Shown here piece by piece: positions 19,901 through 38,566 of a stretch of DNA of 56,588 nt. The translations under genes and the position numbers were made by a program. The stretch comes from Bdellovibrionota bacterium (lineage in GTDB: Bacteria; Bdellovibrionota; FAC87; UBA2466): assembly GCA_041736915.1 (NCBI GenBank), contig JBGSST010000238.1, positions 1 to 56,588 on the forward strand, given 5' to 3'. The notes beneath the pieces were generated by a model. It did not search any database and was not told the DNA's origin. It was given only the letters and a program-made list of their open reading frames with translations. The stretch's first letter is position 1. The number at the start of each line of letters is the position of its first letter.

Positions 19901-22900
19901 CGGTTGCCGTTCAGTACGGGATACGAGTACGCCGGACCGATCTGACAATCGTCCGTAGTCGCGGGCAGCCCCGTCGGCGTCCAGTTTTGGGTATTGAAAT
20001 CCCAGTTTGTGGCGCCGGCGGCACCGTTCTGTGCGTTACCCCCACCCCAGATTTTAGTGGATACCCCACCGACGGTAACGGTGGAGATCGGACCCTGCAC
20101 CGGAGGACCATTGGTGCTGGGAAACTGATAGTTCTGCGAGTTCACCACGTCTTCGGTGGACGCAATCTTTACCTGTAACGTGGAGTTCAGGCGCGCATTC
20201 GACGAGGTCGCGAGCAGAACGTGAATGCACTTGGGCGTAGTATCGCTCAAAGTGATCACGCCACCGCCTAACGATAGAGTCGCCACCGCCGGATTATTGA
20301 CGAAGGTGAGGTTCGACCCAATCTGGGTATCGACGCCGGCGTTGTAGACGCAGTTCGCACTGGTATCGGCGTACACTTTCGCACTGGCTACGTCCGAAGC
20401 GGCGTTGGTTCCACCCAGGGTGAAGGTAATCGAAGTAATATCGCTCGCCGTTCCTACGCCGTTCAAGCTGAAAGCAAAGGTCGCAAAGAGGGTGTCCGAA
20501 GAACTACGGCCGATCGTGGCCGGCGGGTTACCGCCTGCGGTGGCATTCGCCAGCTGTAATCCGACCGGCGCCTGACTTCCCCAATTGATTTTGTTACCGG
20601 GGTCGGTCTCATACGCCGTGTCTCCAAATCCTGACCAATCCGACACCGTCACCGCCGTGCCCGTATATGCGGTGGCCTGGAAGTTCTTGATGTTTCCGAA
20701 AGCGTAGTCATCGAAGAAGCCAAGACCAGTCGGGTTCGGGCTGCTAGGAAGATTCTTCGCCGTGTTTAGGGTGATCGCAAAGCCACCACTGGCGAGGTAG
20801 TGAAACTCGCCGTTTGAAATAGTCTGGATGCTATCGGAGCCGGCCGTCGTGATGTTCAGGCCGGGCGCCGTCGTGCGGCTAATGGAAAAATAGTTTGCGT
20901 TAATTGAGCCCTGAACGTTGAGCGCAAAGCTAGAGCTGCCGTCGATGGCGTCAAGTTTCGCTACGGCGCCGGAGTTGCCGATGATCTGAAGCACTCCGCC
21001 GGGCTTAACCGTCATCGATTTACCGTTTCCAATCAGCACCGATCCACCGGCGCTAATTTTGAGCACGCCGCTTACTTCGATACCGCCGGCCGCGGTGAGC
21101 ACCGCTCCGTTCTGAATTTCCAGCGTAGCGCTCGCGGGAATCGTGAGCAGATCGTTAGTGTTGGAAAGGGTTAATCCTGACTGCACTTTGATCGTTCCCG
21201 CTCCGCTAGCGATCGCGAACGATTCGCTCACGGTGAACGTGCTCGGCATGTAGACGGTCGTAGAGTTTGTGATTAGCAGCTTGCTTAACGGATCGACGTT
21301 ATCCAGAGTCTGCTCAGCAGTTCCGGCCATCTTTAGCAGGAAACCCGATCCCGTCGTCAGTGAACCGGCGTTTTGGTTCGTGAAGAACTCTCCGGTTATG
21401 GTTAACACGCGTCCACCCTGAAGAGAGTGAGTCCCGGTTCCGGTGCTCGTCACGGTGAGCGGTCCACCATCCGAGGTGGCCGCTAGAGAAAAAGTGTTCG
21501 CGGCTGGCGCCGGAGCGGCGGCGATGTAGTAGACGGTGTTCAGCGCTAAGCCCGCGGGTAAGGTGCCGGTAGTCGTTAGTGTGACGGGGGTACCGGCCGA
21601 AAGCCCGTGCCCAGTCAGCGTAAACACTGAGGGGCGACGTCCGGTATGCGTGCCGGTTCCGGTGGTTTGCAACGAAAGCGGAACGCCGCCCGCCGTTCCC
21701 GACAGGTAGAAAGTGTTGGCGGTCGTGGCGGGGGCCGCGAGCACGTAGTACGGAGTGCCCGAAGTGATCCCCGTCGGAAGCGCTCCGCCTGAGTTGGTGA
21801 AGGTCACAACCTCGCCGGCGGCGATTCCGTGGGCCGTCCAGTTGATTAGGCCTGGTCGAGTGACGGTGTGTACTCCGGATTGGGTGCCACTGAATGTGAT
21901 GGACGTTCCCCCCACGGAAGGGGCGAGATAAAAGCTGTTGGTGAGGGGGGCGGGTGTCGCCGCCACGTAGTAGACCGTGCCCGGAGAGATGCCGGTGGGA
22001 AGTGCCCCCGTCGTGGAAAAGAAGACCGGGGTGCCGGCGGTCAACCCGTGAGCGGTATAATTTACTTTACTTGGTTGCTCAGCGGTATTTCCGGTGCCGT
22101 CCGAGGTCGTGGTGATAAAGGTGCCGCCAATGGTGGCGGTGACCGAGAATGAATTAGCCGTAGGCTCCGGGACGGCCGCCACATAGTAAATGGTAGCGGC
22201 CGTGAGCCCGCCGGGCATGGTGCCCGCGAATCGTACCGGATCCCCAACCGCCAGGCCGTGGGCAGTCCAGCGGACTGCATTGCGAATGCCCGTGTTGCCG
22301 CCGCTGCCGGTAACGTTGGTAAAGCCTAATCCATCCGATGTGGCCGACACGCCGAAGGAGTTCGCCGTAACCGGCAAAACGCTCGAAACGTAGTACGTCG
22401 TGGTGGTGTTAAGCGGCGCATCCGCCGTAGTTACGCGAAAGGAATCACCCGCCACGAGTCCGTGATTGGTCCAGCGAATCGCGTGTCGCTGAATGGTGAG
22501 GTTCGTATAGTTCGTGGCTCCGGCGGCATTAATCACCGCTCCGCCGGGGGTGGCGGCTAGTTGAAAGTTGTCGGTGCCACCGCCCGCCGGGTTGATGACG
22601 TAGTAGACGGTACTCGTGCTGAGTTCAGGGGGGAGCGTGCCGGCGGTAAAGCGGACGGGATCGCCAGCGACCAGTCCGCAGTTGTTCCAGGTCACACGAT
22701 CGGTAGTCGCGGAGAAGGAAGCGGTGATGAGCTGAGTGGTCACGACCGTCGTGGCAATATCGGCATCCACCATCGTCACCGCACCGGAGTTAGGAATGCT
22801 CGTCGTGACCGTACCGCTCGTGCCGGCCGTGACCGTAACGGTAGCCGTTGCCCCCACGGCCGCGGTGAAGGTGGGCGCGGTCGGGGTGGCCGTCATCGTG

Positions 22901-23265
22901 CCCGAGACTATTCTCAAACACGACAAGCTATAGCTAGCGTTGGGATAAATGGGGACACGCCAGTCAGCTTGGATATACGCATACTCGGTCGAGGCATTGG
23001 GAACGTTGTTGGGTTCCCAATTACCGGCGCTGTTCCAATCCGTGGTGCCTAAGTCCGGCTCCCAAACGAGCTGCGTCGCCGGATTGTCACTGACGCCGCC
23101 GCCGTTCTGACAGCATGCCCCGGTACCGAGCGTACACGCCGCCTGCGCGCTCTGACTCATCGCGGTTAACGCGATGGCGAGCGAAAAAAGAAGTCGGAAA
23201 ATTTTTGAACCGTGCGCTTTCAAACGTACCTCGTCGTGAAGGAGCCTCAGTCTTCTTTTCGGCAT
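13924..23265 (-). CDS. Giant (3113 aa) secreted surface protein: tandem repeats + beta-helix-like modules + peptidase C25 (gingipain-like) domain + C-terminal sorting signal
   Basis: Uninterrupted 9.3-kb ORF with signal peptide KIFRLLFSLAIALTAMSQSAQA. A TTG at 23223 preceded by GAGG is an alternative start. The C25 region spans ~aa 2655-3035 (nt ~14161-15303), with GRIP, FLGH-G (His2910, nt 14536-14538) and VAMNC (Cys2943, nt 14437-14439). Both codons were verified in the sequence. Confidence 0.9.
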   Translation of the reverse strand: MPKRRLRLLHDEVRLKAHGSKIFRLLFSLAIALTAMSQSAQAACTLGTGACCQNGGGVSDNPATQLVWEPDLGTTDWNSAGNWEPNNVPNASTEYAYIQADWRVPIYPNASYSLSCLRIVSGTMTATPTAPTFTAAVGATATVTVTAGTSGTVTTSIPNSGAVTMVDADIATTVVTTQLITASFSATTDRVTWNNCGLVAGDPVRFTAGTLPPELSTSTVYYVINPAGGGTDNFQLAATPGGAVINAAGATNYTNLTIQRHAIRWTNHGLVAGDSFRVTTADAPLNTTTTYYVSSVLPVTANSFGVSATSDGLGFTNVTGSGGNTGIRNAVRWTAHGLAVGDPVRFAGTMPGGLTAATIYYVAAVPEPTANSFSVTATIGGTFITTTSDGTGNTAEQPSKVNYTAHGLTAGTPVFFSTTGALPTGISPGTVYYVAATPAPLTNSFYLAPSVGGTSITFSGTQSGVHTVTRPGLINWTAHGIAAGEVVTFTNSGGALPTGITSGTPYYVLAAPATTANTFYLSGTAGGVPLSLQTTGTGTHTGRRPSVFTLTGHGLSAGTPVTLTTTGTLPAGLALNTVYYIAAAPAPAANTFSLAATSDGGPLTVTSTGTGTHSLQGGRVLTITGEFFTNQNAGSLTTGSGFLLKMAGTAEQTLDNVDPLSKLLITNSTTVYMPSTFTVSESFAIASGAGTIKVQSGLTLSNTNDLLTIPASATLEIQNGAVLTAAGGIEVSGVLKISAGGSVLIGNGKSMTVKPGGVLQIIGNSGAVAKLDAIDGSSSFALNVQGSINANYFSISRTTAPGLNITTAGSDSIQTISNGEFHYLASGGFAITLNTAKNLPSSPNPTGLGFFDDYAFGNIKNFQATAYTGTAVTVSDWSGFGDTAYETDPGNKINWGSQAPVGLQLANATAGGNPPATIGRSSSDTLFATFAFSLNGVGTASDITSITFTLGGTNAASDVASAKVYADTSANCVYNAGVDTQIGSNLTFVNNPAVATLSLGGGVITLSDTTPKCIHVLLATSSNARLNSTLQVKIASTEDVVNSQNYQFPSTNGPPVQGPISTVTVGGVSTKIWGGGNAQNGAAGATNWDFNTQNWTPTGLPATTDDCQIGPAYSYPVLNGNRTCNNVTLPDSGRLSWNNTTNVFTVLGSLEIGSSYNFTTATNGNITFASTTANQSIYAETTFPGGVTINNSAGSGTVTVNSDFSMTGDLTLSAGTLRITAGNTLTVAGNINVNGGTLKIDPGAYLILGDGRTLTVGASGTLEIVGNSSQPASFSCTGTTTGCAVSVSGTIKAQYYSFNRLAVAGVTIGSGATIDATHYLQNGAFTYPIGTNPVMITLNRQVPGNAWDNMTFDLDGSPATGAQSVVTGGAVAAGTLTIDAYSGNLTGDAFDTDPSYIVTWATPTTTLKLASVDASGTVTITIANPGVVTYTSHGLIAGASVVFSTTGALPTGLAPATTYYVAASPAPTTNTFSVTATLGGAAINTSGTQSGVHTATSGANNTNQGDTALRAGWWSFQQTDPGVYDNTDLTSVKVTLDGTGSSSDVSSARLYYDAACSGSGGTQVGTALTFSGSPPSITFSGLTGVTVQSDLTSPPQRCVYIEFDVASAATSGATLIAKIGTSGDVVNSEGYSFNGSFAPPKSGRTLTIIGNTVNWTGAVSTDWFNPLNWSPNTIIPDATRNCVINNATNSPIINAVGAVCKSVTIGNGTLTINSGQTLSVYGSLTNTGTIIQGSATATITILDDGSTVTNQTLQSSSALDYLVFNKTAGGYVYIGNNNLTINHFEIPASQNFIFNVRNGDTLTLPDAATLSSATFQVDGGSTVAVAPSTTFTVAGGTLKLGGVNDGYPQLTSNKATMTHSGGGTGRWSFVATSGNLDLDGWLVEWLTCPGMQITGTTNVPSLAGGQLREIPSPSFCAPSDVYGIQMNTTGTLPSGADYVGFNWGPDGSPPDPSETYYLLASTGCSNQTVNFTNWFGDFQFAVGIPDPATKVSMTNCGATISNASSPVSLSQAFKAEPYNGVVRLLWQTGQESAHRGFNIYRSVSPSDGYAQVNPTLIRNPIQSGTVHGNYDFRDSGVTNGVTYYYRLEDIAVNGKRKFHGPVSATPLNSLGVVPAASSGAIVSTNTSGGGAPSLNDTTPGIVTVAPGVTQLAKTKNSLRLRIDVPAFVRSASDMVGYDQLAIEGYASTTEGGKPELPERVVLVEVPGADAASFAEVSRTASDTTSIDIVAARTWTVVNGALISSREIDTAFYTTNQSLPSEPVEFQEIVENQGLYYLPIVVRPVKYNPVTRVANAISQITFDVHLSGAPNWNVGAPVTESGPWGYEGGLKIHLRKSGMYKLSYSDLVAAGVDGPFAGANVDKLRLFSKMGELPLQVLAAGANFSPGDEIRFFAPYFDVHTSDRNSLVLYVDSVNGLRMDDVDGTPTNVDSTQTAFRRRIELKNASIALFNEPIADNVEHIYWGRIYAPETSPGDASLKPEFDLPNLASTGHVLIRLSVKGGKGAVLNNPVHHLGLYVNGSASSLGDHVFQSNQPYSMEFTVPASMFVAGRNQIEVRVLGDLVPSGDYDVVNIERMTVDYPHTFRVDSGFADIQNTQAGKDMLVDGLSSGAIAVYDISQITGTALISNAVITDNDGIFAVKFATTPASSSLGRRLVVVADSAVFSPWALELNQGSNWKGLAQGADVLYIGPRRLLSAAARLAEWRRSNGARTALVPTEDIFMEFGQGVRSPQAIKDFIAYSIANWQAPAPKYVVLIGDASLDPKNQLGYGLASGVPTYFSKGQAVDYGNDNFYVALTEGSDAPALAIGRIPGGTVRAVETYIEKVITYESGATSPTGDAAQRFTLLSDTELYGGEKFDEKAERLASLLPGQWNQYTTVNLVKRSVLGDAAFKNAILNSFNNGALFIHFLGHGAENVWSDLNVFNNDDAEGLTNTQLPIVVAMNCLNGMYYDADPATLSLADKLLFNGHGGAVAMFASTTLTVPDLQVRVQDALYEYIVTHPEARLGDSVRMAKLRGGSADITGSWTLFGDPMLKVKIPSAGDRILASVPGPSANAPAASSSGSCAAVHSAQPAKPGLGAMLNVMILILALLVGRLAMARQPKRVPVKVKARRKS
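18775..18987 (-). repeat. Isolated seventh copy of the ~70-aa HGL/YYV repeat
   Basis: aa ~1427-1497: VVTYTSHGLIAGASVVFSTTGALPTGLAPATTYYVAASPAPTTNTFSVTATLGGAAINTSGTQSG. Confidence 0.7.
21418..22695 (-). repeat. Six tandem ~67-73-aa coding repeats (W/Y-T-x-HGL-x-x-GD/T-x-V...LP-x-G...T-x-YYV...N-x-F-x-L/V)
   Basis: aa ~191-616 of the giant protein. Examples: IRWTNHGLVAGDSFRV..TYYVSS..ANSFGVSAT, VNYTAHGLTAGTPVFF..VYYVAA..TNSFYLAPS, VFTLTGHGLSAGTPVTL..VYYIAA..ANTFSLAAT. Confidence 0.8.
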
Positions 23266-23422
23266 CCTTCACTAGGTTCTAAAATGGAGAAAAAATTTGG
23301 ACTTTCCCCTACTTATAAAGTTTAACGCGTCACATTAAATAGCCCCTAATGGAGATATCACCACAAATGGGAATGACGTGCTTTTCCGTGTGGTTAGAGT
23401 GGAATGGCGGGGGTAGGCGGGC

Positions 23423-23445
23423 TCCCCCGAATGGGGGATTTTTTT
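23423..23445 (+). terminator. Hairpin TCCCCC-GAAT-GGGGGA followed by T7 (intrinsic-terminator shape on the plus strand)
   Basis: Read directly. The T-run abuts or overlaps the stop codon of the minus-strand rSAM gene. On the minus strand the hairpin has no U-tract. Confidence 0.3.
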
Positions 23446-24473
23446 CAACTTTCGAAAACCTGCCGTTTGATCTCGCCCAGCTCCATCAGGAAGGGAACGG
23501 GGGCCATGCGATCCCCGGTTTCGGCGCCGGCCATGCCGGGGCAATGATCGCAGAACGATCCGCTACCGCACGAGGTGTCGAACTTGAGATCGCGAACGCG
23601 GTAACCGCGCAACTTCTCGGCCTGCGGTGAATGCCACAAGGTTTGGAAGTCGTGCTCGCGCAAGTTTCCGATCGGCTCGCGCACTTCGAGGCAGGTTAAA
23701 AGATCGCCGTACGGATTCACCGCGCATTTTCCTCGACCGGCGTTACACACCGGTGCGTTAGGATCGTCGACCGGATTGGGAGAAGGGCCGCGCCCCTTTT
23801 CCTTCATGCGAGTGTAGTAGCGACGAAGCTGATCGGGGGTGGCCCGGGTTGCGGTAGAGCCCAATGACGAATCATTTTTCGGAGTGACCAGCGGATCGAA
23901 CTGAATCGGAATTTCCATGCGATCGGCCCAGCTCTGGAGATCGAAACAGCCGTCGATATTTTCTTTCGTCAGCAAACAGTTCACGCCAAGCTGAATGTTG
24001 GCCTTCTTGAGCCGATCGATCGCGGCCACGGTGCGCGCGTGCGACCCGATTCGGCGGGTCATGCGATCGTGAATGGCGGCCTCGGCCGAGTAGAGACTTA
24101 CCGTCACCTGGTAGAAACCGAGTTCCGCAATTCTCCCGGCGGCCTCTTCGTCGAGCAGAAGGCCATTGGTGATGAGACTCATGGCAAAATTTTTCTTGGC
24201 GCCATACTCGGCAATTCCCCAAAACTGGGGATGCATCATCGCCTCGCCGCCGATCAAAATAAGGTAAAGCGTTTTGGCGTCGGCGAGCTGATCGACGATG
24301 CCTTTCCATTCGGCAAGGTTGAGCGGTGGTCGTCCGTCCGCCCGATCGTCGAAGGTGGAAAGGTAGCAGTGGCCGCATCGTTCGTTGCAGTGGTAGGTCA
24401 GCTCCAGCGTCGCCTGCAACGGCAGCAACGACTGCGAGTAGAGATCCCTCCACGCATTGACGATGGACATCAA
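23445..24473 (-). CDS. Radical SAM/SPASM-domain peptide maturase
   Basis: CNERCGHCY (CxxxCxxC) near the N-terminus. C-terminal auxiliary-cluster motifs CNAGRGKCAVNPYGDLLTC and CGSGSFCDHCPG. Start is TTG 24473 or ATG 24470, a 4-nt overlap with the upstream PqqD-like gene. Confidence 0.9.
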   Translation of the reverse strand: MMSIVNAWRDLYSQSLLPLQATLELTYHCNERCGHCYLSTFDDRADGRPPLNLAEWKGIVDQLADAKTLYLILIGGEAMMHPQFWGIAEYGAKKNFAMSLITNGLLLDEEAAGRIAELGFYQVTVSLYSAEAAIHDRMTRRIGSHARTVAAIDRLKKANIQLGVNCLLTKENIDGCFDLQSWADRMEIPIQFDPLVTPKNDSSLGSTATRATPDQLRRYYTRMKEKGRGPSPNPVDDPNAPVCNAGRGKCAVNPYGDLLTCLEVREPIGNLREHDFQTLWHSPQAEKLRGYRVRDLKFDTSCGSGSFCDHCPGMAGAETGDRMAPVPFLMELGEIKRQVFES

Positions 24474-24733
24474 ACCTCTCGGCGAATTAGTTTGAGCGAT
24501 TCCAGCTCAGTGAAAAAACGTTCGGCATCGCTTTGTGCGATAACCGGCTCGACGTCGAACGTGTCGCTGAGTCGCGCGGCAATCTCAGTGCACGTGGATT
24601 TTCCGTCGGCATTACGCCAAAGAAAGCTCGCGACTACGTTCAGCTCGTGAATGGTTCCGGCCTTGGGCGAGAGGACCACGACCCGTCCATCGACTTCACG
24701 CCACGGCAGATTCGAAATGTGGTGAGGCACCAT
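24470..24733 (-). CDS. PqqD-family peptide chaperone (RiPP recognition element)
   Basis: REVDGRVVVLSPKAGTIHELNVVASFLWRNADGKSTCTEIAARLSDTFDV...AERFFTELESLKLI is a typical PqqD/RRE pattern. ATG at 24733 gives 87 aa. The track ORF extends to 24844 with a Cys-rich extension. Confidence 0.8.
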   Translation of the reverse strand: MVPHHISNLPWREVDGRVVVLSPKAGTIHELNVVASFLWRNADGKSTCTEIAARLSDTFDVEPVIAQSDAERFFTELESLKLIRREV

Positions 24734-24774
24734 CCGCGAATTAAAACAAATGCCATCGCAGGGGGCAAGGCACG

Positions 24775-25737
24775 TTGCCGCAACGCAAGGCGTTTTCGTG
24801 CCGTCGCGCGTACCGCTATACTTCGGCGATGGATCGGCGGACATTTTTGAAAAGTTGGGCGGCAGCCGCTCACCCCCACACTTTAGAGCAGGGGGCCGAG
24901 CGTCTTGCCCTATCGATTGCGGGCGTCCGTTTCGACCTTCTCACCGCCGACGCCCGATTGGCGCGGCTGATGGGAAATTACTTCGCGGAGTACCGGGGCG
25001 AAGGCGAAGCGCGGCTGGCGGTGCATTTGTTCCCGCTAACCCGCACCGATTTGCCAAAGCTGTGGGATGACGCCGATCCCGATTTTCATGGCGACGGTGA
25101 CTTCGTGGTCCAGCGGGACTTCGGGGCCCGACGGGAACGGTTGGCGGATGGCCGCACGCGGGTGCTGGCCGCCCTTCATCCGGAAGAGCCCGAGGATGCC
25201 GTTCACAATCTGCTTCGCTGGGTAATGCCCGGTTTTCTCCTCGAGCACCGGTGTTTTCTGATGCACTCGGCGAGCGTGGTTTTTCGTGACGAGGGGTATC
25301 TCTTCTACGGCCAAAGCGGCGCCGGAAAGTCCACGACGGTGGCTCTGATCGCTGGCCACGAAGAGGGGGCCTCGGTTCTCGGTGATGACGCGGGCATCAT
25401 CGAATGCCGTGACGGTCGGGCCTGGCTGCACTCCGCTCCGCTCGGCAGTGGCTTTTCACGCCTTGCGCCGCGCAAGACGCGCGTTCCGCTGCGGGGGATT
25501 TTTTCTCTGGAGCAGTCTAGCCTCACCGAAAAGCAACCCATGCCGACGGCGGAGGCGGTGCGCACGCTTCTCGCCAGCGCCATGACGCCGGACTTTTCCG
25601 TGGATGTCGACGGGCGATTTGATCTGGCGGTTGAATTTGCCGGTTCCAGTTGTGGCGTGCGCCGGTTAAAATTCCAGAAAAGCGCCGAGTTTTGGACGAT
25701 GATTTCGACAACAGAAAAAGGGGTTGGTGGTGTCTGA
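24775..25737 (+). CDS. HPr-kinase-like P-loop protein (putative peptide Ser kinase)
   Basis: HSASVVFRDEGYLFYGQSGAGKSTTVALIAG...VLGDDAGII mirrors the HprK C-terminal domain pattern H..v...G.G.LI.G.SG.GKS....L...G..LV.DD. Start is ambiguous: TTG 24775 or ATG 24829. Confidence 0.75.
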   Translation: MPQRKAFSCRRAYRYTSAMDRRTFLKSWAAAAHPHTLEQGAERLALSIAGVRFDLLTADARLARLMGNYFAEYRGEGEARLAVHLFPLTRTDLPKLWDDADPDFHGDGDFVVQRDFGARRERLADGRTRVLAALHPEEPEDAVHNLLRWVMPGFLLEHRCFLMHSASVVFRDEGYLFYGQSGAGKSTTVALIAGHEEGASVLGDDAGIIECRDGRAWLHSAPLGSGFSRLAPRKTRVPLRGIFSLEQSSLTEKQPMPTAEAVRTLLASAMTPDFSVDVDGRFDLAVEFAGSSCGVRRLKFQKSAEFWTMISTTEKGVGGV

Positions 25738-25909
25738 CAAGAAAAATGAAACGGCGGAGAAACCGGACAAGCTGAAGTATCAGAAGCCGGAGATCAAAAC
25801 CGAGCCGCTCACCACCGTCGCCGCCCTCTGCAACGGCAGCGCCACAGGCGGCCGCAAAGCTACGACTGGCGCTCCGAACTTTTGCCAGGTCGCTAAGCTG
25901 AAGTCGTAA
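25724..25909 (+). CDS. Candidate RiPP precursor peptide (59-61 aa, two Cys, C-terminal Ser)
   Basis: VVSDKKNETAEKPDKLKYQKPEIKTEPLTTVAALCNGSATGGRKATTGAPNFCQVAKLKS. AAGGGG lies 6 nt upstream of GTG 25730, the best start. Overlaps the kinase-like gene stop and ends 7 nt before the peptidase gene. Contains a YxxPx(I/L) leader-like motif. Confidence 0.6.
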   Translation: MVVSDKKNETAEKPDKLKYQKPEIKTEPLTTVAALCNGSATGGRKATTGAPNFCQVAKLKS

Positions 25910-25915
25910 ATTTTC

Positions 25916-26359
25916 ATGGATTGGATTGCTCTCGAAGGCAAGAGCATGATGCCGTTTCTAGATGCGGGCGATCGAGTCGGCGTGAAATGGCTGTCGGGGG
26001 ACGACTGGAACGACCTCGTGGAAGGCGACGTCGTGTTGGGACGTAACCCCCAGGGAGGATGGATCCTCCACCGAATTTTGTCGTGCCCACGAGTCGCGGG
26101 AGAAAATCCCGAGTGGGTGACCAAGGGAGACTCTTCGATTACCGCCGAAACTTTCGCCCGCAATGAGCTTTGGGGCCGGGTGGTGGCGGTAAAGCGCGGC
26201 GAAGAGGGGCCCGAAATTTTACTGCAACGAAGTCGACTGGATTTTTGGATCGCCCGTTTTTCGCGGTACACGCAACTCACAAATTCCACCCGGCTCGCCA
26301 AGGCATTTTGCCGGCGCGCCGCCAGAGGACTGGGATGGCTAAGAAGGCGCTTCGCTTAA
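25916..26359 (+). CDS. S26B (SipW/Sec11/archaeal-type) signal-peptidase-like protease lacking an N-terminal TM anchor
   Basis: EGKSMMPFL (Ser10 box), GDVVL, WILHRIL (His52 box) and TKGDSS (cf. the TKGDNN box) occur in the SipW/Sec11 order. The protein starts directly at the Ser box with no hydrophobic anchor. Confidence 0.75.
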   Translation: MDWIALEGKSMMPFLDAGDRVGVKWLSGDDWNDLVEGDVVLGRNPQGGWILHRILSCPRVAGENPEWVTKGDSSITAETFARNELWGRVVAVKRGEEGPEILLQRSRLDFWIARFSRYTQLTNSTRLAKAFCRRAARGLGWLRRRFA

Positions 26360-27396
26360 AACAGATCCAGGCCGGCACGCTGGCCCTGCTGCGGCCGCAC
26401 ACGTTCATCGCCGTGCCGCCCGATCCGCGCATCCCCGCGGGCGCTTGGAAAGAGGCGTTCGCCTACGCCCAGCGCATTCACTCTGCCTTACCCTTTCTCA
26501 TTCAGATCGAAAGAGCCTCGCAAAAAGGGGCGTGGGGAAAATCGGTGTCGGCGGAAGAGCGCGTGTTTCTCTCCGAGGCGTTGCACCGCGATCGCATGTT
26601 TCTTGCGCTGCTCGATTGGGAGATGGAGAAAGCGGGCGAAGTTCTGGCCCGCGCCAAAGTTCCCGCCATCGTACTGAAGGGTATGGACCTCGCCCGGCGC
26701 TTTTATCCGGATCGCGTTTTTCGTCCGATGAGCGACATCGATCTGCTGGTGCGGGCGCGTGATTTTTCGAAAGTGGTTTCGCGTTTCGAAAGTGAAGGGT
26801 ACCAGGCCGTGGGCCGGCACTACCCCGGCCGTTTCCGAATAGAGCTCTGCCGGGACGAAGGACGGCCGGTCGTCGAGCTGCACAGTTTTCTACTGAAGGG
26901 CGACGACGCCGACTCGATGAAGGGAATCTGGAAGCGGGCCAAGGAGCCGGAGAACAATCCCTTTCCGGGAACTCTCGTGCTCGGTGACGAGGACCATCTT
27001 TTTTACTTGGGCGCGCACGCGGCGGTTCAGCACCTCATCGAGTCCCCCATCTGGCTGAACGACATTCACTTCGTGCTGCAGAACGGGGAGCCGGACTGGG
27101 ACAAGCTATTGAAAAAGATCGAGCAGCGCCGCAGCCATACCGCATTTTGGTTTTTATTCACGGTGCTCAAAGCGTGGGGCCATACGGCTCCCGACGATGT
27201 CATCGAGCGGCTCACGGCCGAGGTCGCGTCCGGCCGTCGAGCGGCGCTGTCCGTATTGGCGCCGCAGGAGAGGCTTTTCCCGTATGCCGGCCGCGGCTGG
27301 ACGTGGATGCTATCGGGCCGGTTTCTGCTGAAGGACAGTGCCCTGAGTGCGGTTCGGTACGCCATTGAGCGCCAGCTGGTGACGAGACCGGCGTAA
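26335..27396 (+). CDS. Nucleotidyltransferase family protein (uncharacterised NTP_transf_5-like, DIDLLV motif)
   Basis: AIVLKGMDLARRFYPDRVFRPMSDIDLLVRARDF...GY...VELHSFLL matches the family pattern. ATG at 26335 overlaps the peptidase gene end. Confidence 0.8.
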   Translation: MAKKALRLKQIQAGTLALLRPHTFIAVPPDPRIPAGAWKEAFAYAQRIHSALPFLIQIERASQKGAWGKSVSAEERVFLSEALHRDRMFLALLDWEMEKAGEVLARAKVPAIVLKGMDLARRFYPDRVFRPMSDIDLLVRARDFSKVVSRFESEGYQAVGRHYPGRFRIELCRDEGRPVVELHSFLLKGDDADSMKGIWKRAKEPENNPFPGTLVLGDEDHLFYLGAHAAVQHLIESPIWLNDIHFVLQNGEPDWDKLLKKIEQRRSHTAFWFLFTVLKAWGHTAPDDVIERLTAEVASGRRAALSVLAPQERLFPYAGRGWTWMLSGRFLLKDSALSAVRYAIERQLVTRPA

Positions 27397-27462
27397 GCGA
27401 TCGGCTTAGTGAACCAGCTCAAATACGAGGTGGCTGACCACCTCGTCGGCATATCCCGCCAT
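27219..27462. repeat. Left copy of the duplicated convergent-gene junction (intact NTase 3' end + remnant of the lipase-like gene 3' end)
   Basis: 27219-27243 and 27367-27399 match 29256-29280 and 29276-29308. 27410-27462 matches 29335-29387 (53 nt, 1 mismatch). The remnant still reads ...MAGYADEVVSHLVFELVH* on the minus strand. Confidence 0.8.
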
Positions 27463-27495
27463 TTTGTAATTCGCAATTGTATGGATTGCGTACGG

Positions 27496-29058
27496 CTAAA
27501 TGTCGCGGTTAAGCGCAGCCACAAGCTGCGACTTGAAACCGACCAAAAATCGGACCGCTCGCTCGCGCCAAGTAGATTTCCGAAGCTTCGGCATCGTTCT
27601 ATCTTCTGAGCCGCGCTGCTTTAGTGCGTAGCTTAGGAAACCGTGCTTTTCGGCGGTTAACACTCGAATCTCCCAGCCATGTTCTAGGCAAAAGTCATCC
27701 ACCGCCTGGAGCACCCCGTACCTAACTCCGGAGGTTGCGTTTCCTTCGACGTAATCGTGACCGGCAATAACCCCATCTTTCTTCACTTTTCTGAGGGAAA
27801 CTTCCAGCTCAAGCTTTGTGTTTCGGTAGGTATGGTCAGTGTCAATGTAGACCCAATCGAAGTAGTGATCGGGGAATTGGCCCAGGGTCTGGTGTGAGTA
27901 ACCTCTAAGGATCTCGATCCTCCCGAGGTTAATTTCAGAACGAAACTCATCTTGCACGCTCGTATGCTTGCTTTCGCCGAATCGTTCACTATCCCATGAA
28001 TCGATTAGGTAGAGTTTTTTCGGACGAACCACACGAAGTACTGCCTTCGAAAACTCACCTTCGTCGACCCCCATCTCGGCCCCTATGGAGTTTTTAGGGA
28101 GCAAATTTAAGAGATCTAGGCGAGTGGGCACCGTTCGGTAGTTTTTTTTATGCGTCCCTGGGCTCCGAACGTACTTGTCACAGCTCGTGCACGGGATGTC
28201 CGTGCGAGGCGGTTGCCGCCCCAACAGCATCTGCTTTGCGTAGCTCAATTTTTCTCCGGCAATGACCGCCGAAAGTCCGTCTGTAAAGGCATTGCCAAAG
28301 TCCCCCCAAGTGTTCACGCAACAACCCAGCACGCGACCGTCCCAATTGATTTGGGGACTATTCCACAACTGCTCACAGATCTCGGACAGGTAACTGGTGC
28401 CGGTTCTTTTTTTGAAGACTGATCGATTTCCCGCAACCAATCCATGCATGCGTGCAAATTTCTGGGGGGCTTTCAACGGAGAGAATTTATCGTCGCAGTT
28501 CAACTTCAGGAGGAATTCCATTCCCAATTCTTTGGAAAGCTCCCTTGCCTTATCCACCTCGTGTTGATTGTGACCAAAAGCCACGAACTGCCAAGTAAGC
28601 TTTGGTGTATCGGAGTGCAGTCTCTTCTTTACTGCAACCAGTCGTCGGAGGTTATCGACAACCCGGTCAAAGTTCCCGTTCACCCGGTACTGGGCGTAGG
28701 TGAACTGGCTAGCCCCATCGATGGAGAAGGTAATTCTTTTCACGCCGCATTTAACTAACGCCTCCATCACCTTCGCGGGGACGTGGTTAAAATTTACGCC
28801 GTTGGCCAGAGTGATGGCCACGTTCCTCTCGGCGCTAAACTCCAAGATCTCCACCAGGTCGGGATGCAAAAACACTTCGCCCCAATTCGAAAGTTCGATG
28901 GTCCGTATGTCGGGGTTTTCTTCGATCAATCGCCGATAGTTTTCCATTCCTATGAAGCCTGAACCCAAGTCTTTCCTGACTATTCCCTTGGCGGTAGGGC
29001 ACACGGGGCATTTGAGCTGGCAATGGGTGGAGATGTCTACCCTGACCGATTCTGGCAT
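27496..29058 (-). CDS. Radical SAM/SPASM-like domain fused to a class I SAM-dependent methyltransferase
   Basis: CQLKCPVCP (CxxxCxxC) at the N-terminus. Cys-rich mid region CEQLWNSPQINWDGRVLGCCVN...IPCTSCDKY. C-terminal MTase-like LYLIDSWD...WVYIDTDHTY...KDGVIAGHDY. The ATG at 29058 is preferred because the track ORF (to 29274) runs into repeat-derived sequence. Confidence 0.8.
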   Translation of the reverse strand: MPESVRVDISTHCQLKCPVCPTAKGIVRKDLGSGFIGMENYRRLIEENPDIRTIELSNWGEVFLHPDLVEILEFSAERNVAITLANGVNFNHVPAKVMEALVKCGVKRITFSIDGASQFTYAQYRVNGNFDRVVDNLRRLVAVKKRLHSDTPKLTWQFVAFGHNQHEVDKARELSKELGMEFLLKLNCDDKFSPLKAPQKFARMHGLVAGNRSVFKKRTGTSYLSEICEQLWNSPQINWDGRVLGCCVNTWGDFGNAFTDGLSAVIAGEKLSYAKQMLLGRQPPRTDIPCTSCDKYVRSPGTHKKNYRTVPTRLDLLNLLPKNSIGAEMGVDEGEFSKAVLRVVRPKKLYLIDSWDSERFGESKHTSVQDEFRSEINLGRIEILRGYSHQTLGQFPDHYFDWVYIDTDHTYRNTKLELEVSLRKVKKDGVIAGHDYVEGNATSGVRYGVLQAVDDFCLEHGWEIRVLTAEKHGFLSYALKQRGSEDRTMPKLRKSTWRERAVRFLVGFKSQLVAALNRDI

Positions 29059-29255
29059 CGTGGAGGTAACTATACCTGGTTTATCTATGTCGCGCTTTGC
29101 CTGTCTCGAAGGGAATCGGATGCCTTTGAATCCGTGATAACCGGAACTAAGCAACGCTGAAGCCCTCCGGCTCGACGGGAGCGGTTTAGCGGTCAGTAAT
29201 TTAGAAGCAGGAGCATTACGGCCGACCCGCCCAATGTGGTAGGGCGGCCCACCGG

Positions 29256-29387
29256 CGAGGTCGCGTCCGGCCATCGAGTGCCAGCTCGTTACGAAACCGG
29301 CGTAAGCGCCCCACCCCGATGGCGATCGCCCTATTGAACCAGCTCAAACACGAGGTGGCTGACCACCTCGTCGGCATATCCCGCCAT
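29256..29387. repeat. Right copy of the duplicated junction (deleted remnant of the NTase 3' end + intact lipase-like gene 3' end)
   Basis: See the left copy. This copy lacks the equivalent of 27244-27366 (123 nt). The deletion is bounded by the similar short sequences TCGAGCG and TTGAGCG. Confidence 0.8.
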
Positions 29388-30743
29388 GGCGAAATGGTTG
29401 ATGCCCCCGCCGGAAAATCGGCGGCAGCGTTCGCGTTCCCGCCGAGTTCCGGCGTGAACTTGGCGGCAGGTATTAAGCGCTCCGTCCGATTCCACGAGGC
29501 CGTCGGAAAGCTGAAACCTATCCCAGGTCAGCAAATCAAGTAGTGCGCCCAGCTCCCGTGAGCCAGCCTTTCGTTTAAAGTCGGCCACGCCACGTTCGAA
29601 GAGGGGGCGATTTTCAGAAGCGTGAAGCATGGCCGGGGCCTGACTAAAGCGGGTCGCCATTTCGTCGAGCAGCTGGCTCATAATCGTGGAACGCTCACGC
29701 CATTTTTTGGCGGTTTGGGCGATCTTCCCAATGCTTTGGATTAAGGGAAACTCTGAGTCCTGGCCGGTCTGGCTGAGTCGGGCCAGGGCTGCGGTATCGG
29801 GTCGACCCTTGGTTCCGGTGCCGATAGTCCCCGGTCGAGAAAAATCAAATTCTCCGGCGGAAGCGGCAAGTTCACCGTGGAACCAACCGTCTAGTCGTAT
29901 GGGGGAGGCAAAGCGCACAGCCTGAGCCATTTTGTTATCGGCCTCCGCGAGAGGACTAAGGTCGAACCACGACGGGTTGGTAGCCGCGGAAAGGTCGGAA
30001 AAAGTATCCACCAGCTTGTCGCTGCCCCCTAGCCGGAAAACCTTAAAAAAATCTGTGGCCAGCGACTGTTTCTTTTCTAATTTAGCCCCCAGGATAAGCG
30101 CGCTAAGACCGATTCCGCCCTCGGCGCTCGCTGATGTGTACACCTCGCTGAGGTTCCGGCAGGTAGCTTCCGTCATTCCTGTTTTATCGCCGCATCGGCG
30201 GGCGATGAGGGAGGCGGTCGCCCCGCCCTTCGAATGACCGATAAGGGCACATTTTTTTTGTCCGGCGAAGCTCACGCGCAGGTCGGGACCACAGAGATTT
30301 TCTAGGAGCTGTTCCGTGCGCTCGGTCATTTCAAAAAGCGTGCTCTGGGTGGTCTCCTGAACGGTCATCACGACCTCTTGGCAGGCTTCTTTGCGCAGCC
30401 GATCGATCAGAAACTCCCCGCCGGTGTAAGCTTCGGCGACCGCGCGCACGGCGGTTTTGCCTTGGGCCTGAACAAAAGCGTGAACCAACCTAGCTCCGGT
30501 TCCTACTTGGAGAACGAAAAAATCTACAATGTCTTGGGTGATGCCATACCCCTGAATCAGCACGCACCGGCGCAAGGGTAGCGCCCTATCTTTCGGGGCG
30601 TAGGCCGTCTGGAGGTAGATCTTTCCCTCTACCGTTTCCCGCGGAAAAGTGGCGCGGGCCGAACGTCCGGTATCCAAAACGAGGTCGGGTCCGGCATGGG
30701 CAAGACAGGGAAATACGAGAAACAGCCAAACAAGGGTTTTCAT
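29331..30743 (-). CDS. Secreted alpha/beta-hydrolase, lipase/esterase-like
   Basis: Signal peptide MKTLVWLFLVFPCLAHA. Nucleophile elbow ALIGHSKGG (GxSxG). Candidate acid LSDGLV and His INHFAMAG near the C-terminus. Confidence 0.75.
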   Translation of the reverse strand: MKTLVWLFLVFPCLAHAGPDLVLDTGRSARATFPRETVEGKIYLQTAYAPKDRALPLRRCVLIQGYGITQDIVDFFVLQVGTGARLVHAFVQAQGKTAVRAVAEAYTGGEFLIDRLRKEACQEVVMTVQETTQSTLFEMTERTEQLLENLCGPDLRVSFAGQKKCALIGHSKGGATASLIARRCGDKTGMTEATCRNLSEVYTSASAEGGIGLSALILGAKLEKKQSLATDFFKVFRLGGSDKLVDTFSDLSAATNPSWFDLSPLAEADNKMAQAVRFASPIRLDGWFHGELAASAGEFDFSRPGTIGTGTKGRPDTAALARLSQTGQDSEFPLIQSIGKIAQTAKKWRERSTIMSQLLDEMATRFSQAPAMLHASENRPLFERGVADFKRKAGSRELGALLDLLTWDRFQLSDGLVESDGALNTCRQVHAGTRRERERCRRFSGGGINHFAMAGYADEVVSHLVFELVQ

Positions 30744-30816
30744 CCGCCTCCTTCACTACCAGAAAAACCCTGGGCAGGGGAACGGGTAGAAATGGTGGGG
30801 GCTACGCCAATCCAGT

Positions 30817-32223
30817 TTAGCGGGGCGTAGTCAGATTGCGGTCTAGGAAAACTCCCCGGGGCTGTATGAAGAAATAAGGTGCCTGGTTGGCGACTAAGCG
30901 AAAGGCCGAGCCGTTGGCGCCATTGTACGAGGCTTGGACCGCAATTCGTCCATCGGTCACCGTGTTCGATTGCATCAAAATGTTTTGCTCGTCGTCGGGC
31001 GATAAATCCGCCGCTTCCACGTTCTTCCAGTAGATTATCGCGGCGGGAAGCTGCCCCGTTGGCGTATTGGGGGCGGTCGGCATCGTTACCTTATTTCTCA
31101 ATATGGTGGCGTTACGCATGTACACGGGAAGATTCCCTTTCACTACGCCCGTGCCGTCGGCGATTTCCAAGTAAGTCAGGAGGTAGATTCCGGAATCCAG
31201 CAAAACGTTATCCTGCACCAGAATATTCTCACCGTTTCTAATTTTGAGCGATCCACCCGCGCTAGTGGGGCTCCAACCGGAGATCGTGTTTTTCTCGATC
31301 TTCAGCGTGTTCATTCCCCAAGCGTAGATTCCGTGATCTTCCGGGTAGGCGTCCGTGCCGGCCCTGCGGTGAATCACATTGCCCGAGATTAAGATGTCGT
31401 AGTTTCTCAGGTAGTTCGGAAACGGGTTCGTCGGCGCTAGCGAAGAACGGGCGGCGCCTCCCATATGAATCGCCGACTTATAGAAGCCGTCGATACGCGA
31501 GTTCATGATGCGGACTCGCCGCGTGTTGGAAAGCGCAACGGCCTTACCTACGTGCGAAGCGTCCCGGGTAAAGTTAACATTCGCGACCAAAGCATCCTGA
31601 ACGCGATTCAGATGAATCTGCGGGGCGCTGTCACCGAACCGGGCGTTTCCGTTCTCGAAAGAGCAGTTGCTGATATTGACGCTGCGAATGGCGTAAGGAA
31701 TCTCCGGGGCATTCAGCCCGTTCCCCGCGTACTTCGCGGCGCCGGTGTCGGAGAAAACAAGCGAGATGCCGCGAAAACGAATTCCGTAGAGGATGAGATA
31801 AACCAACTCGCGCGTTGGTTCGGAATCGGAATTAATGGTCTGTTCGAGAAACAGCGAGCTGCCGTCGCGGGTGGTGAGCGTCGCTTGACCGGAGAATAGA
31901 CGCATGGAGGAGCGGAAGGTGAGACCGATGTTTTTTCCGAGTGAGTTCGTGCGGTACACGAAGTAGGTGCCCTCGGGAATCCATACCGTTTCGCCGGCGC
32001 GTGCGGCATTGATCGTTTCTTGAATGCCGATGGAGTCCTATTCATCGCCTACGCGATGGCGGGCCGCCAAACCCTTGGCGTCGAGCTCCGCCTGAGTCGC
32101 GGGATGGGATCTTCCGTCGCCCACGGCCCCCTTCGCGCGTACGTCGAGGCAGCCACTGCCGCAGAGATTTTCGCCGTGGCCGTTCAAGCTCAGAAAAAGC
32201 AAGGGGATGAGGAAGAGTTTCAT
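30817..32223 (-). pseudogene. Right-handed beta-helix (pectate-lyase-superfamily-like) secreted protein interrupted by an in-frame TAG at 32038-32040
   Basis: Track ORFs 32038..32223 (signal peptide MKLFLIPLLFLSLNG, DVRAKGAVGDG) and 30817..31959 are in the same frame. The 78 nt between them translate without stops as DSIGIQETINAARAGETVWIPEGTYF, a typical family N-terminal motif. The downstream ORF has no signal peptide of its own. Confidence 0.7.
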
Positions 32224-32613
32224 CCCCGCATACAGTGCAAAGGCGGGTCCGAAGGTACCGTTCCAACGGCTTGGTTTTCCTCCGTATTTTCGGTGTAAAA
32301 ATATTCGACGATCGCCAAAGATTGAGCGGATTGTAGAGCCCGTGGACGCTTACGCGAACTAAACACGGAAGGGCCAGCGATAACCGTGATTTCGGCCACC
32401 CACCATCTTTTCGACGGAGGTGGAAAGGGAACGCACAGATTCGTGGCACCCTGCAGTTACGAGTAATAAGTGCCCCAAAACGCCGTTTGACGCGGTGTAA
32501 GGGCTGCGAACCTCTCAATACGGTATCAGGATGCCCTCCTAACCCCCATCCTGTTTACTTATTGATGGCCTGCCCTGCGATGTGAAAACGTACTCGGTGC
32601 GTTCGGTGGTGAT

Positions 32614-34113
32614 TTGATAGAATCAGCCGTGCTTCACTTTACTCTGCCTTGGGTGATTATCCTCGGTTGGCTCACTAGTTGCTCGCTGTCGCCACTCTCT
32701 AGTCGCATTCAAGTTCGCTTGCCAGAGTCGTTGCGCATCAATCCCGAACTAAATGAGATGACCCATTTCGCGGTGGCCATCTCCGAAGGAATAGCCAATT
32801 CGGTGAGCGCATCGGACACGCAGGGGCGCGATATCAGCTGCCTTAAAACGGTGGGGCAGACTACTTTCCCGCTCACACTGTCCCAATTACTGAGCGGGGT
32901 CTCGATTTCGGTTCCCGTGGGAACGCATCACATCGCTATCCTAGGATACAGCGGCACTACCGCCAGCCACCCCACACTCGCCTCCCTTTTCGCGCAGCGG
33001 CCGGTGGCAAAATCATTCGTCGTTGCGGAAGGTGACTTCAACACCGTGACCGACACTTCGGTACGGCTCACTTCCAGCTACGATAAAAACACCGCCACCG
33101 ATCGGCTGGTGTATTGCCCGTTACCGCCCGAAGGCGCCCAAGGGGCTCTCCTAGTGGGAGACACCGCGATGCGTTTCAAACTGCAGGAAGGGACTTGGGT
33201 TCGTACGGATATTGGCTCGGGCGTGGTTTCGGTGCCCGGATTCCACGTGGATGTTTCAGGGGTGGCGCACGCTAGTTTTTCTTTCGGAAGCTCTGTGGGC
33301 TATGGCAACGACTCCGCTGGCTCTTTCGGGAACGCATTGATACCTACTGCCATTGGGCCGACATCACTCGCGGTTGCGAGTAATGGAGAGGTTTGGGTTG
33401 CGGCCGCCGTTGACGTCGACCCTTCCCAAGTTGGAGCGTACTTGGCGGGGGTTGGATATTCTGCCACCGCCTTGAACTCTGGAGGAACGCCATTTGAAAC
33501 AGCCCATTTGCGTGCCGGCCCCGATAATCGGCTATTAGCGTTTGGCCGAGGAAACCGGGTGCTTAGAGTCGCTACCCGCACTTCGGGATCGTGGTCCGCC
33601 ACGACAAGCTTCTCTGCGGCTGGCGCTCATAGTTGCAGCAATGTTCTTGATTCCGAACAGGGGGCATTCGATCCGCAGGGGCATGCGCATCTAGTATTTC
33701 GCTGCGACAACAGTACCTCGCGCCTGGGCTACGCGACGAATCGCTCCGGCTCCTGGCAGAGCTATATGCTAGGAGACGAAACGGTCGTGGGTCCGACTTC
33801 GATTGCGATCGATGCGGCGGGAAATCTCCACATTTTCTATTCGGCAACTCAGACTATAAAATACACGACTGCATCTGTCCCCGATTACGTCTTCACGGAG
33901 CCCACGGAACTGTACACTCACAGCGATACTATGGTCGGCATCGTGGTCAGTGCGATTTCTCCCACCCGGTTTCGGGGCTGGTTCCACAGCGCGGGCGTTT
34001 CTGATCCCTCGGTCTATGCGTTTGAATATCAGGACGCCGAATTCTCCGGACCCCAACTCGTCTATACCGCGACCACCAGCATGGGCATGACCCCCATTCT
34101 GTTTACCTATTGA
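32614..34113 (+). CDS. Hypothetical lipoprotein (repetitive beta-rich)
   Basis: TTG start with lipobox-like WLTSC. Recurrent ...DAAGNLHIFY / SNGEVWVAA / DPQGHAHLVF strands. No family recognised. Confidence 0.6.
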   Translation: MIESAVLHFTLPWVIILGWLTSCSLSPLSSRIQVRLPESLRINPELNEMTHFAVAISEGIANSVSASDTQGRDISCLKTVGQTTFPLTLSQLLSGVSISVPVGTHHIAILGYSGTTASHPTLASLFAQRPVAKSFVVAEGDFNTVTDTSVRLTSSYDKNTATDRLVYCPLPPEGAQGALLVGDTAMRFKLQEGTWVRTDIGSGVVSVPGFHVDVSGVAHASFSFGSSVGYGNDSAGSFGNALIPTAIGPTSLAVASNGEVWVAAAVDVDPSQVGAYLAGVGYSATALNSGGTPFETAHLRAGPDNRLLAFGRGNRVLRVATRTSGSWSATTSFSAAGAHSCSNVLDSEQGAFDPQGHAHLVFRCDNSTSRLGYATNRSGSWQSYMLGDETVVGPTSIAIDAAGNLHIFYSATQTIKYTTASVPDYVFTEPTELYTHSDTMVGIVVSAISPTRFRGWFHSAGVSDPSVYAFEYQDAEFSGPQLVYTATTSMGMTPILFTY

Positions 34114-34173
34114 GGGTGTGGATCGAGGTTCGCCGCCCCTTCGCTTTGCTCAGGGTGGCCAACTGGGGAGGAA

Positions 34174-35939: not shown

Positions 35940-35948
35940 GGGGCGATC

Positions 35949-38537: not shown

Positions 38538-38566
38538 CCGTTTTCGCCAAGGCTCACTCACTATCG

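Follow-up and report, generated by a model that had tools for sequence, protein, structure and literature searches.

Six divergently arranged genes at positions 23445-27396 of a Bdellovibrionota contig (JBGSST010000238.1; the whole stretch of 56,588 nucleotides that was analyzed is called here the window) encode a radical S-adenosylmethionine (SAM) enzyme with a SPASM domain, a PqqD-family protein, a kinase-like P-loop protein, a short peptide, a peptidase related to Sec11 and a protein with a nucleotidyltransferase fold. We consider it reasonably probable that this cluster directs a maturation pathway of the type that yields peptides made by ribosomes and then modified post-translationally (RiPPs), distinct from that of lasso peptides, and that the mature peptide would work with a giant surface protein carrying a Peptidase_C25 domain rather than as a diversifying antibiotic. 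The features of the locus are listed below, where aa stands for amino acids and RRE for RiPP recognition element.

23445-24473, minus strand: radical SAM/SPASM maturase of 342 aa, with the cluster motif CNERCGHC and without a fused RRE
24470-24844, minus strand: PqqD-family RRE protein (Pfam PqqD), open reading frame of 124 aa
24734-24828, no strand: divergent intergenic region of ~95 bp, presumed from its geometry alone to be the promoter region
24829-25737, plus strand: ScmC-family P-loop kinase-like protein, 302 aa from MDRR, with the Walker A motif GQSGAGKST and LGDD
25727-25909, plus strand: precursor peptide, 60 aa from a GTG codon, or 61 aa if the TTG at 25724 is the start
25916-26359, plus strand: Sec11/SipW-like peptidase of 147 aa, with GKSMMP, HRI and KGD; putative leader peptidase
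26335-27396, plus strand: NTP_transf_5 nucleotidyltransferase-fold protein of 353 aa, with the motif DIDLLV
13924-23265, minus strand: giant Peptidase_C25 protein of 3113 aa; probable seventh component

The original prediction for this region described six open reading frames (ORFs) in a divergent layout, with a 4-nt overlap between the radical SAM gene and the PqqD ORF (whose stop lies at 24470), and all of this was borne out by the ORF list and the sequence. Its picture of a compact six-gene cluster also holds as far as these genes are concerned, but it overlooked the giant Peptidase_C25 gene, which is a recurrent downstream partner of the radical SAM gene. The intergenic region splits the PqqD and radical SAM genes (and the C25 gene) from the genes for the kinase, the peptide, the peptidase and the nucleotidyltransferase. 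On the plus strand the start of the precursor ORF overlaps the 3' end of the kinase gene, the peptidase gene begins 6 nt past the precursor stop codon, and the peptidase and NTP_transf_5 genes overlap by 25 nt. The relatives have a gap of 110-120 bp at the place of the divergent intergenic region, and a promoter/terminator scan of positions 23200-27600 detected no sigma-70 consensus in this region of the window. Between the stop of the radical SAM gene and the start of the giant gene there is a hairpin rich in GC, TCCCCCGAATGGGGGA, after which comes a T-run on the plus strand (23423-23438); the orientation of this hairpin is unfit for a terminator of the minus-strand genes.

All six genes, the short ORF included, were present in every related locus examined (~13 distinct Bdellovibrionota loci; the loci retrieved, distant ones included, are labelled L001-L045), so that the set is syntenic, and this recurrence exceeds chance. 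The contigs of the kinase homologues (L024-L030) carry the same six genes, and tblastn confirmed even those that had not been called; other loci were reached through the precursor (L033-L035 and L036-L045), a metagenome scan with a 4-sequence precursor alignment being among the methods used. In L029 no gene was called for the radical SAM enzyme (3279-4351), whose match is broken into two parts, residues 1-219 and 238-342; a frameshift, a pseudogene or an error of assembly may explain this. In loci of the Halobacteriovorax/Bacteriovoracaceae type the gene order is rearranged and the identity of the enzymes drops to 25-32%, while that of the precursor stays at 50-60% across loci. The absence of a lasso cyclase, a B2 protease and an ABC exporter from the window had also been noted, and a Pfam analysis of the large window ORFs found no Asn-synthase-like, transglutaminase-like or ABC-exporter domain in those scanned; a few small ORFs, and ORFs that gave no match, are without assignment. 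Likewise, the Pfam lists of called genes in L024-L030 and L033-L035 included no lasso cyclase or B2 protease within 8-10 kb of the cassette.

The precursor is the best-conserved gene of the set, in agreement with the expectation that homologous neighbourhoods would share a short ORF. A profile search retrieved 99 distinct homologous clusters, whose named sources are Halobacteriovorax, Bacteriovoracaceae, and Oligoflexia or Bdellovibrionota. The family consensus can be written as Y-x-K-P-x-I…A/x-C-N-G…G-G-R-K-A…C…L-x-S, where the slash marks the proposed cut between leader and core. In the 99 aligned sequences Y18, P21, C35, N36, G37, R43 and K44 are invariant, and K20, E26, L28, A33, G41, G42, A45 and C53 are conserved in at least 90%; the C-terminal Ser (S60) is also found in at least 90% of them, and one sequence has Thr. 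The leader of the window peptide carries YQKPEI and ...TTVAA, its putative core is LCNGSATGGRKATTGAPNFCQVAKLKS, and across the family the final position of the YxxPx motif is I, V, L or M. Conservation spans the whole ~27-residue core, which in the window contains no Asp or Glu; no acidic column is conserved among the 99 sequences. The proposed cut, ...V-A-A/L-C..., places Ala33 at -1 and usually Val at -3, with a small residue (Ala or Gly) preceding x-Cys; at -2 the family has Ala or Gly, whereas lasso precursors have Thr. The motif YxxPxL is described as conserved in actinobacterial lasso leaders, in a discussion of how the PqqD-like B1/RRE protein binds the leader (PMC6784204), and among the matches listed in our searches lasso-like precursors with a YxxPx[IL]-type leader occur in two kinase-bearing loci (L015 and L017; Nostoc and Halosimplex). 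Because the precursor is more conserved than its enzymes, a fixed interaction partner is suggested, the most evident candidate being the C25 giant; a constraint of this strength is unlike that of typical antimicrobial RiPPs. The YxxPx[ILV] leader, the Cys residues, the small residue before the first Cys and the terminal Ser support, to the extent of such sequence evidence, the earlier proposal of an uncharacterised RiPP-like class.

The domain assignments behind that proposal withstood hidden Markov model, profile and structure tests, and those to Radical_SAM, SPASM, PqqD and NTP_transf_5 are above the Pfam threshold. The radical SAM enzyme matches Radical_SAM PF04055 (2e-19) and SPASM PF13186 (4e-8). 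All of its NCBIfam matches are sub-threshold, the best one being a nearly full-length match to MftC (1.3e-32; 113 vs 265 bits). When compared with the curated sactisynthase cut-offs it scored 90 vs 625 bits for StsB, 71 vs 850 for AlbA and 57 vs 300 for SkfB, and it was not placed in any curated sactisynthase family (NCBIfam, StsB, AlbA, SkfB etc.). Its closest solved relatives are the thioether-forming enzymes SkfB (1e-10) and CteB (2e-9); because of this relationship and of the two conserved Cys in the core, thioether crosslinking is the leading guess for its reaction. The PqqD protein matches Pfam PqqD with 9.7e-15. Given that its homologues have 86-99 aa and the ORF 124, the true start is likely Met38 at 24733, giving 87 aa. 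A Halobacteriovorax-type contig (L033) has two PqqD genes (11088-11372 and 12751-13026), one adjoining the kinase gene and the other the radical SAM gene, and the single PqqD of the window is closer to the copy next to the radical SAM gene. Since each enzyme is paired there with a PqqD gene of its own, this arrangement suggests that both the kinase and the radical SAM enzyme are RRE-guided. The L033 cassette sits among glycosyltransferase genes, with SLBB (polysaccharide-export) genes nearby, as is also the case in L034.

The P-loop protein had been named an HprK-like kinase, a description that its fold supports and that the corresponding Pfam family does not. An AlphaFold model built on the family alignment (pLDDT, the predicted local distance difference test, of 92) was compared with the PDB using Foldseek; ATP-dependent phosphoenolpyruvate carboxykinase (ATP-PEPCK) was found with E 3e-8, above HPr kinase/phosphatase (1knx, E 3e-5), with TM scores of ~0.3-0.5. 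No Pfam match to Hpr_kinase_C PF07475 was obtained, and the NCBIfam matches are all sub-threshold (HprK_rel_B 3e-7, ScmC 4e-6, and also HprK_rel_A). The precomputed database label of this protein and of all its close homologues is Pfam PF27840 'ScmC', beside PqqD and radical SAM/SPASM. In the family alignment the Walker A motif, GxSGAGKxT, whose variable position is taken by S or T, and a GDD motif are both invariant. Close homologues number ~35, all of them from metagenomes or metagenome-assembled genomes. At E <= 1e-3 the ScmC superfamily counts 13,459 representatives, including some generic P-loop matches. The number falls to 3,374 at E <= 1e-10, and it is ~34 for the tight subfamily of the window kinase. 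The N-terminus of the kinase, MDRRTFLK (24829-24852), is a perfect twin-arginine consensus, and R-R...L is conserved in the family. Its reading as a Tat signal was rejected, given that no hydrophobic h-region follows and that the homologues are charged there; in the model this stretch is probably a structural helix (pLDDT ~90).

The assignment of the peptidase to the endoplasmic reticulum (ER) type of signal peptidases found support in profile matches to SEC11C and SEC11A, while the NCBIfam model sigpep_I_arch stayed under its cut-off (2.9e-6; 27.2 vs 51.85 bits), as did SipW. The identity of this enzyme is based on the comparison of a profile of 16 homologues with the PDB, in which the human proteins SEC11C (1.5e-9) and SEC11A (1.2e-8) were followed by SpsB (8e-6) and LexA (2e-3); a word-prefiltered homologue search with the window protein gave one other protein, and a model predicted by AlphaFold from the resulting 2-sequence alignment reached a pLDDT of 58 and was not used for fold search. 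The profile aligns on the Ser of SMxP, the His of HR and the KGD motif with SMEP, HRV and TKGD of SEC11A/C, and the residues G, S, M, P, H, R, G and D are invariant in the 16 homologues. The gene is often called one codon past the catalytic Ser, and the upstream G-x-S-M-x-P is conserved, in frame, in every locus checked. According to its sequence, the peptidase has no transmembrane (TM) segment, no N-terminal hydrophobic stretch and a basic amphipathic C-terminus, and it is predicted to be cytoplasmic; the same side of the membrane is indicated for the domain by the fused Acidobacteriota forms described below, because in these the S26-like domain comes before the signal/TM segment. Since the conserved set includes no other protease, leader removal is presumptively assigned to the Sec11-like enzyme. 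The remaining enzyme matches NTP_transf_5 PF14907 (5.5e-32), and its gene is syntenic in all the Bdellovibrionota-type loci.

In the pathway that we propose, the stand-alone PqqD protein would bind the 60-aa precursor via the YxxPxI leader motif and present it to the radical SAM/SPASM enzyme, which would modify the core, most likely forming thioether crosslinks from the two conserved Cys. The ScmC-family kinase would then phosphorylate the C-terminal Ser, the NTP_transf_5 protein would add a sugar or a nucleotide to the Ser phosphate, and the cytoplasmic Sec11-like peptidase would remove the leader after Ala33 (...VAA/LC...). The peptide has the Cys residues and the Ala/Gly cut-site candidate that the earlier predictions of radical SAM/SPASM modification and of signal-peptidase-type leader removal call for, and the chemistry proposed here (crosslink, phosphate, and sugar or nucleoside monophosphate) would be that of the relatives. 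For the tailoring steps there is a precedent in lasso peptide biosynthesis, where the linear precursor is phosphorylated on its C-terminal Ser by HprK-like kinases that have little specificity otherwise, and the NTP_transf_5-type protein PsmN adds a hexose to the Ser phosphate (PMC8498205, PMC9266682). The highly conserved terminal Ser of the present family fits this kinase/nucleotidyltransferase chemistry, and by analogy the cluster appears to work like a hybrid of radical SAM/SPASM RiPP maturation and lasso-type C-terminal Ser tailoring.

Distant relatives of the kinase come from a contig scan keyed on the generic pattern G[QH]SGAGKST, in which there were no close relatives among the matches listed. 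These matches include Acidobacteriota (L001-3, L010-13 and L022), a 'Deltaproteobacteria' metagenome-assembled genome (L007), and also L031/32. Among them a collinear operon has the order PqqD, radical SAM/SPASM, short ORF, ScmC-like protein and S26-like protein, and the peptides have other cores with the same grammar, (K/R)PYxxPxI...EAVLG/xCK...C...C..GS, all of those listed ending in Ser. The window system belongs to a wider cross-phylum superfamily. The variant in L031/L032 (3600-16700) is expanded, with two PqqD proteins, a TPR protein, three radical SAM enzymes, a ScmC-like protein, a 68-aa precursor ending in GSGS, three methyltransferases, an S24-like/acetyltransferase fusion and an ABC transporter. 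In the Firmicute Peribacillus kribbensis DSM 17871 (L008, 9473-14038) a Gly/Asn-rich peptide with a YQRPLVL leader, without Cys and ending in Lys, is followed by a ScmC-like kinase, PqqD, an S26-like peptidase, an ABC exporter and NTP_transf_5. No radical SAM enzyme or lasso cyclase was identified among the listed ORFs of this locus, which were read by eye and searched by tblastn with the cassette proteins, and it looks like another uncharacterised use of the kinase/PqqD/S26/nucleotidyltransferase module.

The giant gene lies 180 nt downstream of the radical SAM gene on the same strand, and its product consists of an N-terminal signal peptide, a repeat-rich ectodomain, Propeptide_C25, Peptidase_C25, and a C-terminal segment that contains Cys. 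The match to Peptidase_C25 PF01364 has an E value of 3.5e-73, and Propeptide_C25 was also matched. The protein aligns to gingipain R (1cvr, 2.7e-12) and PorU (6za2, 4.7e-12), with the His of GHG and the Cys of NC matched to His211 and Cys244 of RgpB. The S1 Asp163 of RgpB has no aligned counterpart in the giant, so that no specificity for Arg or Lys was assigned to its C25 domain. Homologous giants of 2,500-3,300 aa adjoin the cassette in 7 of the ~13 distinct Bdellovibrionota loci (among them L025, L026/27, L029, despite its rearrangement, L030, L034 and L043/44), and a giant is also adjacent in the Planctomycetota locus L004. In most of the Acidobacteriota loci among the matches listed, the operon runs on into a Peptidase_C25 protein of 1,500-3,100 aa, and at least six loci (L001, L002, L003, L012, L013 and L022) have an in-frame fusion in which the S26-like domain forms the N-terminus of the giant, a basic linker and a signal-peptide-like TM segment coming after it. 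C25 proteins are probably few per genome. The recurrence of the adjacency in three phyla, together with a domain fusion, speaks for a functional link between the cassette and the giant, and the giant C25 protein is likely a seventh component of the system.

The C-terminus of the window giant (13924-14200) consists of GSC, a TM helix and a basic tail ending in ...RRKS. The Bdellovibrionota giants of L034, L043, L044 and L029 have a tripartite tail that resembles a sorting signal, in which a G-C motif is followed by a TM helix and then by a basic stretch. Of the four Bdellovibrionota giants that are distinct and complete, three end in Ser (RRKS, KLKFS, KRIS), which echoes the KLKS of the precursor. 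The Acidobacteriota giants have neither the tripartite tail nor a terminal Ser.

Several points weigh against a peptide-maturation pathway that serves the giant. The evidence consists of gene content and conservation patterns, from which every step of the pathway is deduced. The scores of the radical SAM enzyme, far under every curated NCBIfam cut-off, leave its reaction unfixed by family, and the kinase owes its assignment to its predicted fold and its P-loop alone. At -3 relative to the proposed cut, F, Y or L is found in some of the precursors, which is atypical for signal peptidase I. Finally, no exporter is conserved across the related loci, and about half of the Bdellovibrionota loci (L024, L028, L033/37, L035, L040 and L041) have no giant within 8-10 kb.

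As to the function of the product, we tentatively put forward that the mature peptide, instead of being a free antibiotic, is dedicated to the giant C25 surface protease as its partner, a more specific proposal that at present must be regarded as doubtful. One possibility is that a crosslinked loop, on which the invariant Arg-Lys is displayed, inhibits or regulates the gingipain-like domain as its cognate ligand; another is that a PorU-like C25 transpeptidase attaches the peptide, as a phospho-glycosylated 'handle', to the surface protein or to the envelope.

It seems unlikely that the pathway produces instead a peptide-derived cofactor or intracellular small molecule, as occurs with pyrroloquinoline quinone (PQQ) or mycofactocin. 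In such a case the peptidase would cut out a small piece that carries the modification, such as the C-terminal Ser with a phospho-nucleotide or phospho-sugar handle, for use within the cell or for loading onto a protein. The short SPASM radical SAM enzyme without a fused RRE and the discrete PqqD match PqqE/PqqD and MftC/MftB, systems in which a small peptide is likewise handed on to a peptidase without a dedicated exporter; MftC is the best and nearly full-length NCBIfam match, and the core sequence is extremely conserved. However, this conservation covers the entire core and not one short motif, the precursor is a different one, and the matches to cofactor maturases are far under cut-off. 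The kinase, the nucleotidyltransferase and the giant surface-protease partner are additions to the PQQ and mycofactocin scheme, and the lasso precedent accounts for the first two without a cofactor. Moreover, the tie to a giant that is secreted suggests an outward direction, and L028, L034 and L035 have ABC genes near the cassette.

The adjacency and fusion of the giant with the cassette, as well as the basic, Ser-ending tails that follow the TM helix in three of the four complete Bdellovibrionota giants and resemble KLKS, could also mean that the enzymes act mainly on the giant itself, either through radical SAM modification or through phosphorylation of its cytoplasmic ...KS tail, the short ORF being an accessory. 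This explanation is quite improbable: about half of the Bdellovibrionota loci have the six genes and no giant nearby, the most conserved element is the short ORF, which has a canonical RRE-type leader motif, and the giants of Acidobacteriota do not end in Ser.

The cluster resembles the phosphorylated and phosphoglycosylated lasso peptide systems (paeninodin PadeK; pseudomycoidin PsmK/PsmN) in its HprK/PEPCK-fold kinase, its NTP_transf_5 protein, its PqqD-type RRE, its YxxPx[LI] leader and its precursor ending in Ser. Nonetheless, a split lasso cluster, with these genes as the tailoring half and the cyclase and B2 protease elsewhere, is very improbable and the lasso reading is largely refuted, because the core has no acidic residue to serve as macrolactam acceptor and neither the window nor the flanks of ~13 related loci contain a cyclase or B2 cysteine protease; the -2 Thr is also missing, the cluster has its own radical SAM/SPASM enzyme and its own Sec11-like serine peptidase, and it has no conserved ABC exporter.

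Compared with other known systems, a peptide-maturation pathway of the proposed kind shares with the sactipeptide and ranthipeptide pathways (SkfB, CteB, AlbA, PapB) a radical SAM/SPASM enzyme and a leader-bearing peptide that contains Cys. It differs from them in that the RRE is a separate PqqD and not an N-terminal domain of the radical SAM enzyme, in that the core has only two Cys and is highly conserved instead of variable, and in the addition of the kinase, the nucleotidyltransferase and the signal-peptidase-type protease. The peptidase has the SMxP Ser, the HR His and the KGD of the ER/archaeal-type signal peptidases I (Sec11, SipW), and its proposed cut is also after a small residue; unlike these enzymes, it has no N-terminal membrane anchor, and its presumed substrate is a RiPP leader and not a Sec signal peptide. 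With HPr kinase/phosphorylase the resemblance is one of fold only, PEPCK ranking above it.

The original prediction regarded the enzyme combination as undescribed, and this is true of the full set but not of its nucleus. The triad of kinase, PqqD and radical SAM/SPASM is already catalogued without a function, in TIGRFAM/NCBIfam as SynChlorMet (SCM) and in Pfam as PF27840 'ScmC'. The SynChlorMet cassette (ScmC/ScmD/ScmE/ScmF) likewise combines a ScmC-family P-loop protein, a PqqD homologue and radical SAM/SPASM enzymes, two of them as opposed to the single one found here, and it is also functionally uncharacterised. Scored with the SynChlorMet models (TIGR04248-04251), the window proteins reach 26.3 vs 125 bits for ScmC, 31.1 vs 100 for ScmD, 75 vs 400 for ScmE and 62.8 vs 400 for ScmF. 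To our knowledge, the SynChlorMet description includes no S26-like peptidase, NTP_transf_5 protein or C25 partner. In our literature search we found no paper on SynChlorMet and no description in which the triad is joined by NTP_transf_5, a Sec11-like peptidase and a giant of the C25 type. The same search returned nothing that combines HPr kinase, PqqD and radical SAM, or radical SAM, HPr kinase, nucleotidyltransferase and RiPP, no paper that combines Peptidase C25 with radical SAM or PqqD, and no precedent for radical SAM with an S26/signal peptidase. We know of no precedent for the removal of a RiPP leader by a serine peptidase of the Sec11 type in the cytoplasm.

Other genes of the window were also inspected. 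Convergent with the NTP_transf_5 gene there is a gene for a 592-aa fusion of radical SAM, SPASM and a class-I methyltransferase (Methyltransf_24; 27496-29274, minus strand), an architecture that is unusual in itself. It was rejected as a member of the cluster, given that it is absent from all the related loci, and is probably unrelated. The flanking synteny of the window (27400-45700) with L026 (12600-16600) consists of the C25 giant and the cassette, followed by MiaB-like, MnmA, NifS-like and NtrY/NtrX genes. In comparison with L026 the window has ~18 kb of extra DNA between the cassette and the shared downstream genes, mostly genes that could not be annotated; it includes a beta-helix protein, an M28 peptidase, a DUF4189 protein and a GEVED/DUF7151 protein, and this stretch absent from L026 is a variable island. 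A glutathione-related group formed by a gamma-glutamyltranspeptidase, a glutathione synthetase and a GST-N/glutaredoxin-like protein lies at 9004-13152, and a glutathione-dependent formaldehyde-activating (GFA) protein is encoded at 40016-40486.

If the proposed steps hold, the cluster would define a new RiPP class in which radical SAM chemistry is joined to the phosphorylation and decoration of a C-terminal Ser, known so far only from lasso peptides, and in which a cytoplasmic Sec11-type serine peptidase would serve as the leader peptidase. The pathway would be linked, genetically and physically through the fusions, to a giant gingipain/PorU-like surface protease, and the large uncharacterised ScmC family would gain a testable function. 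The conservation of the peptide core across a whole phylum of predatory bacteria would then suggest a physiological role rather than one in warfare. Should the peptide in addition be a partner reserved for the giant, we would have a RiPP that services one secreted protein, kept from the predatory Bdellovibrionota to Acidobacteriota and Planctomycetota, and with its leader peptidase physically fused, in some lineages, to the protein that it serves.

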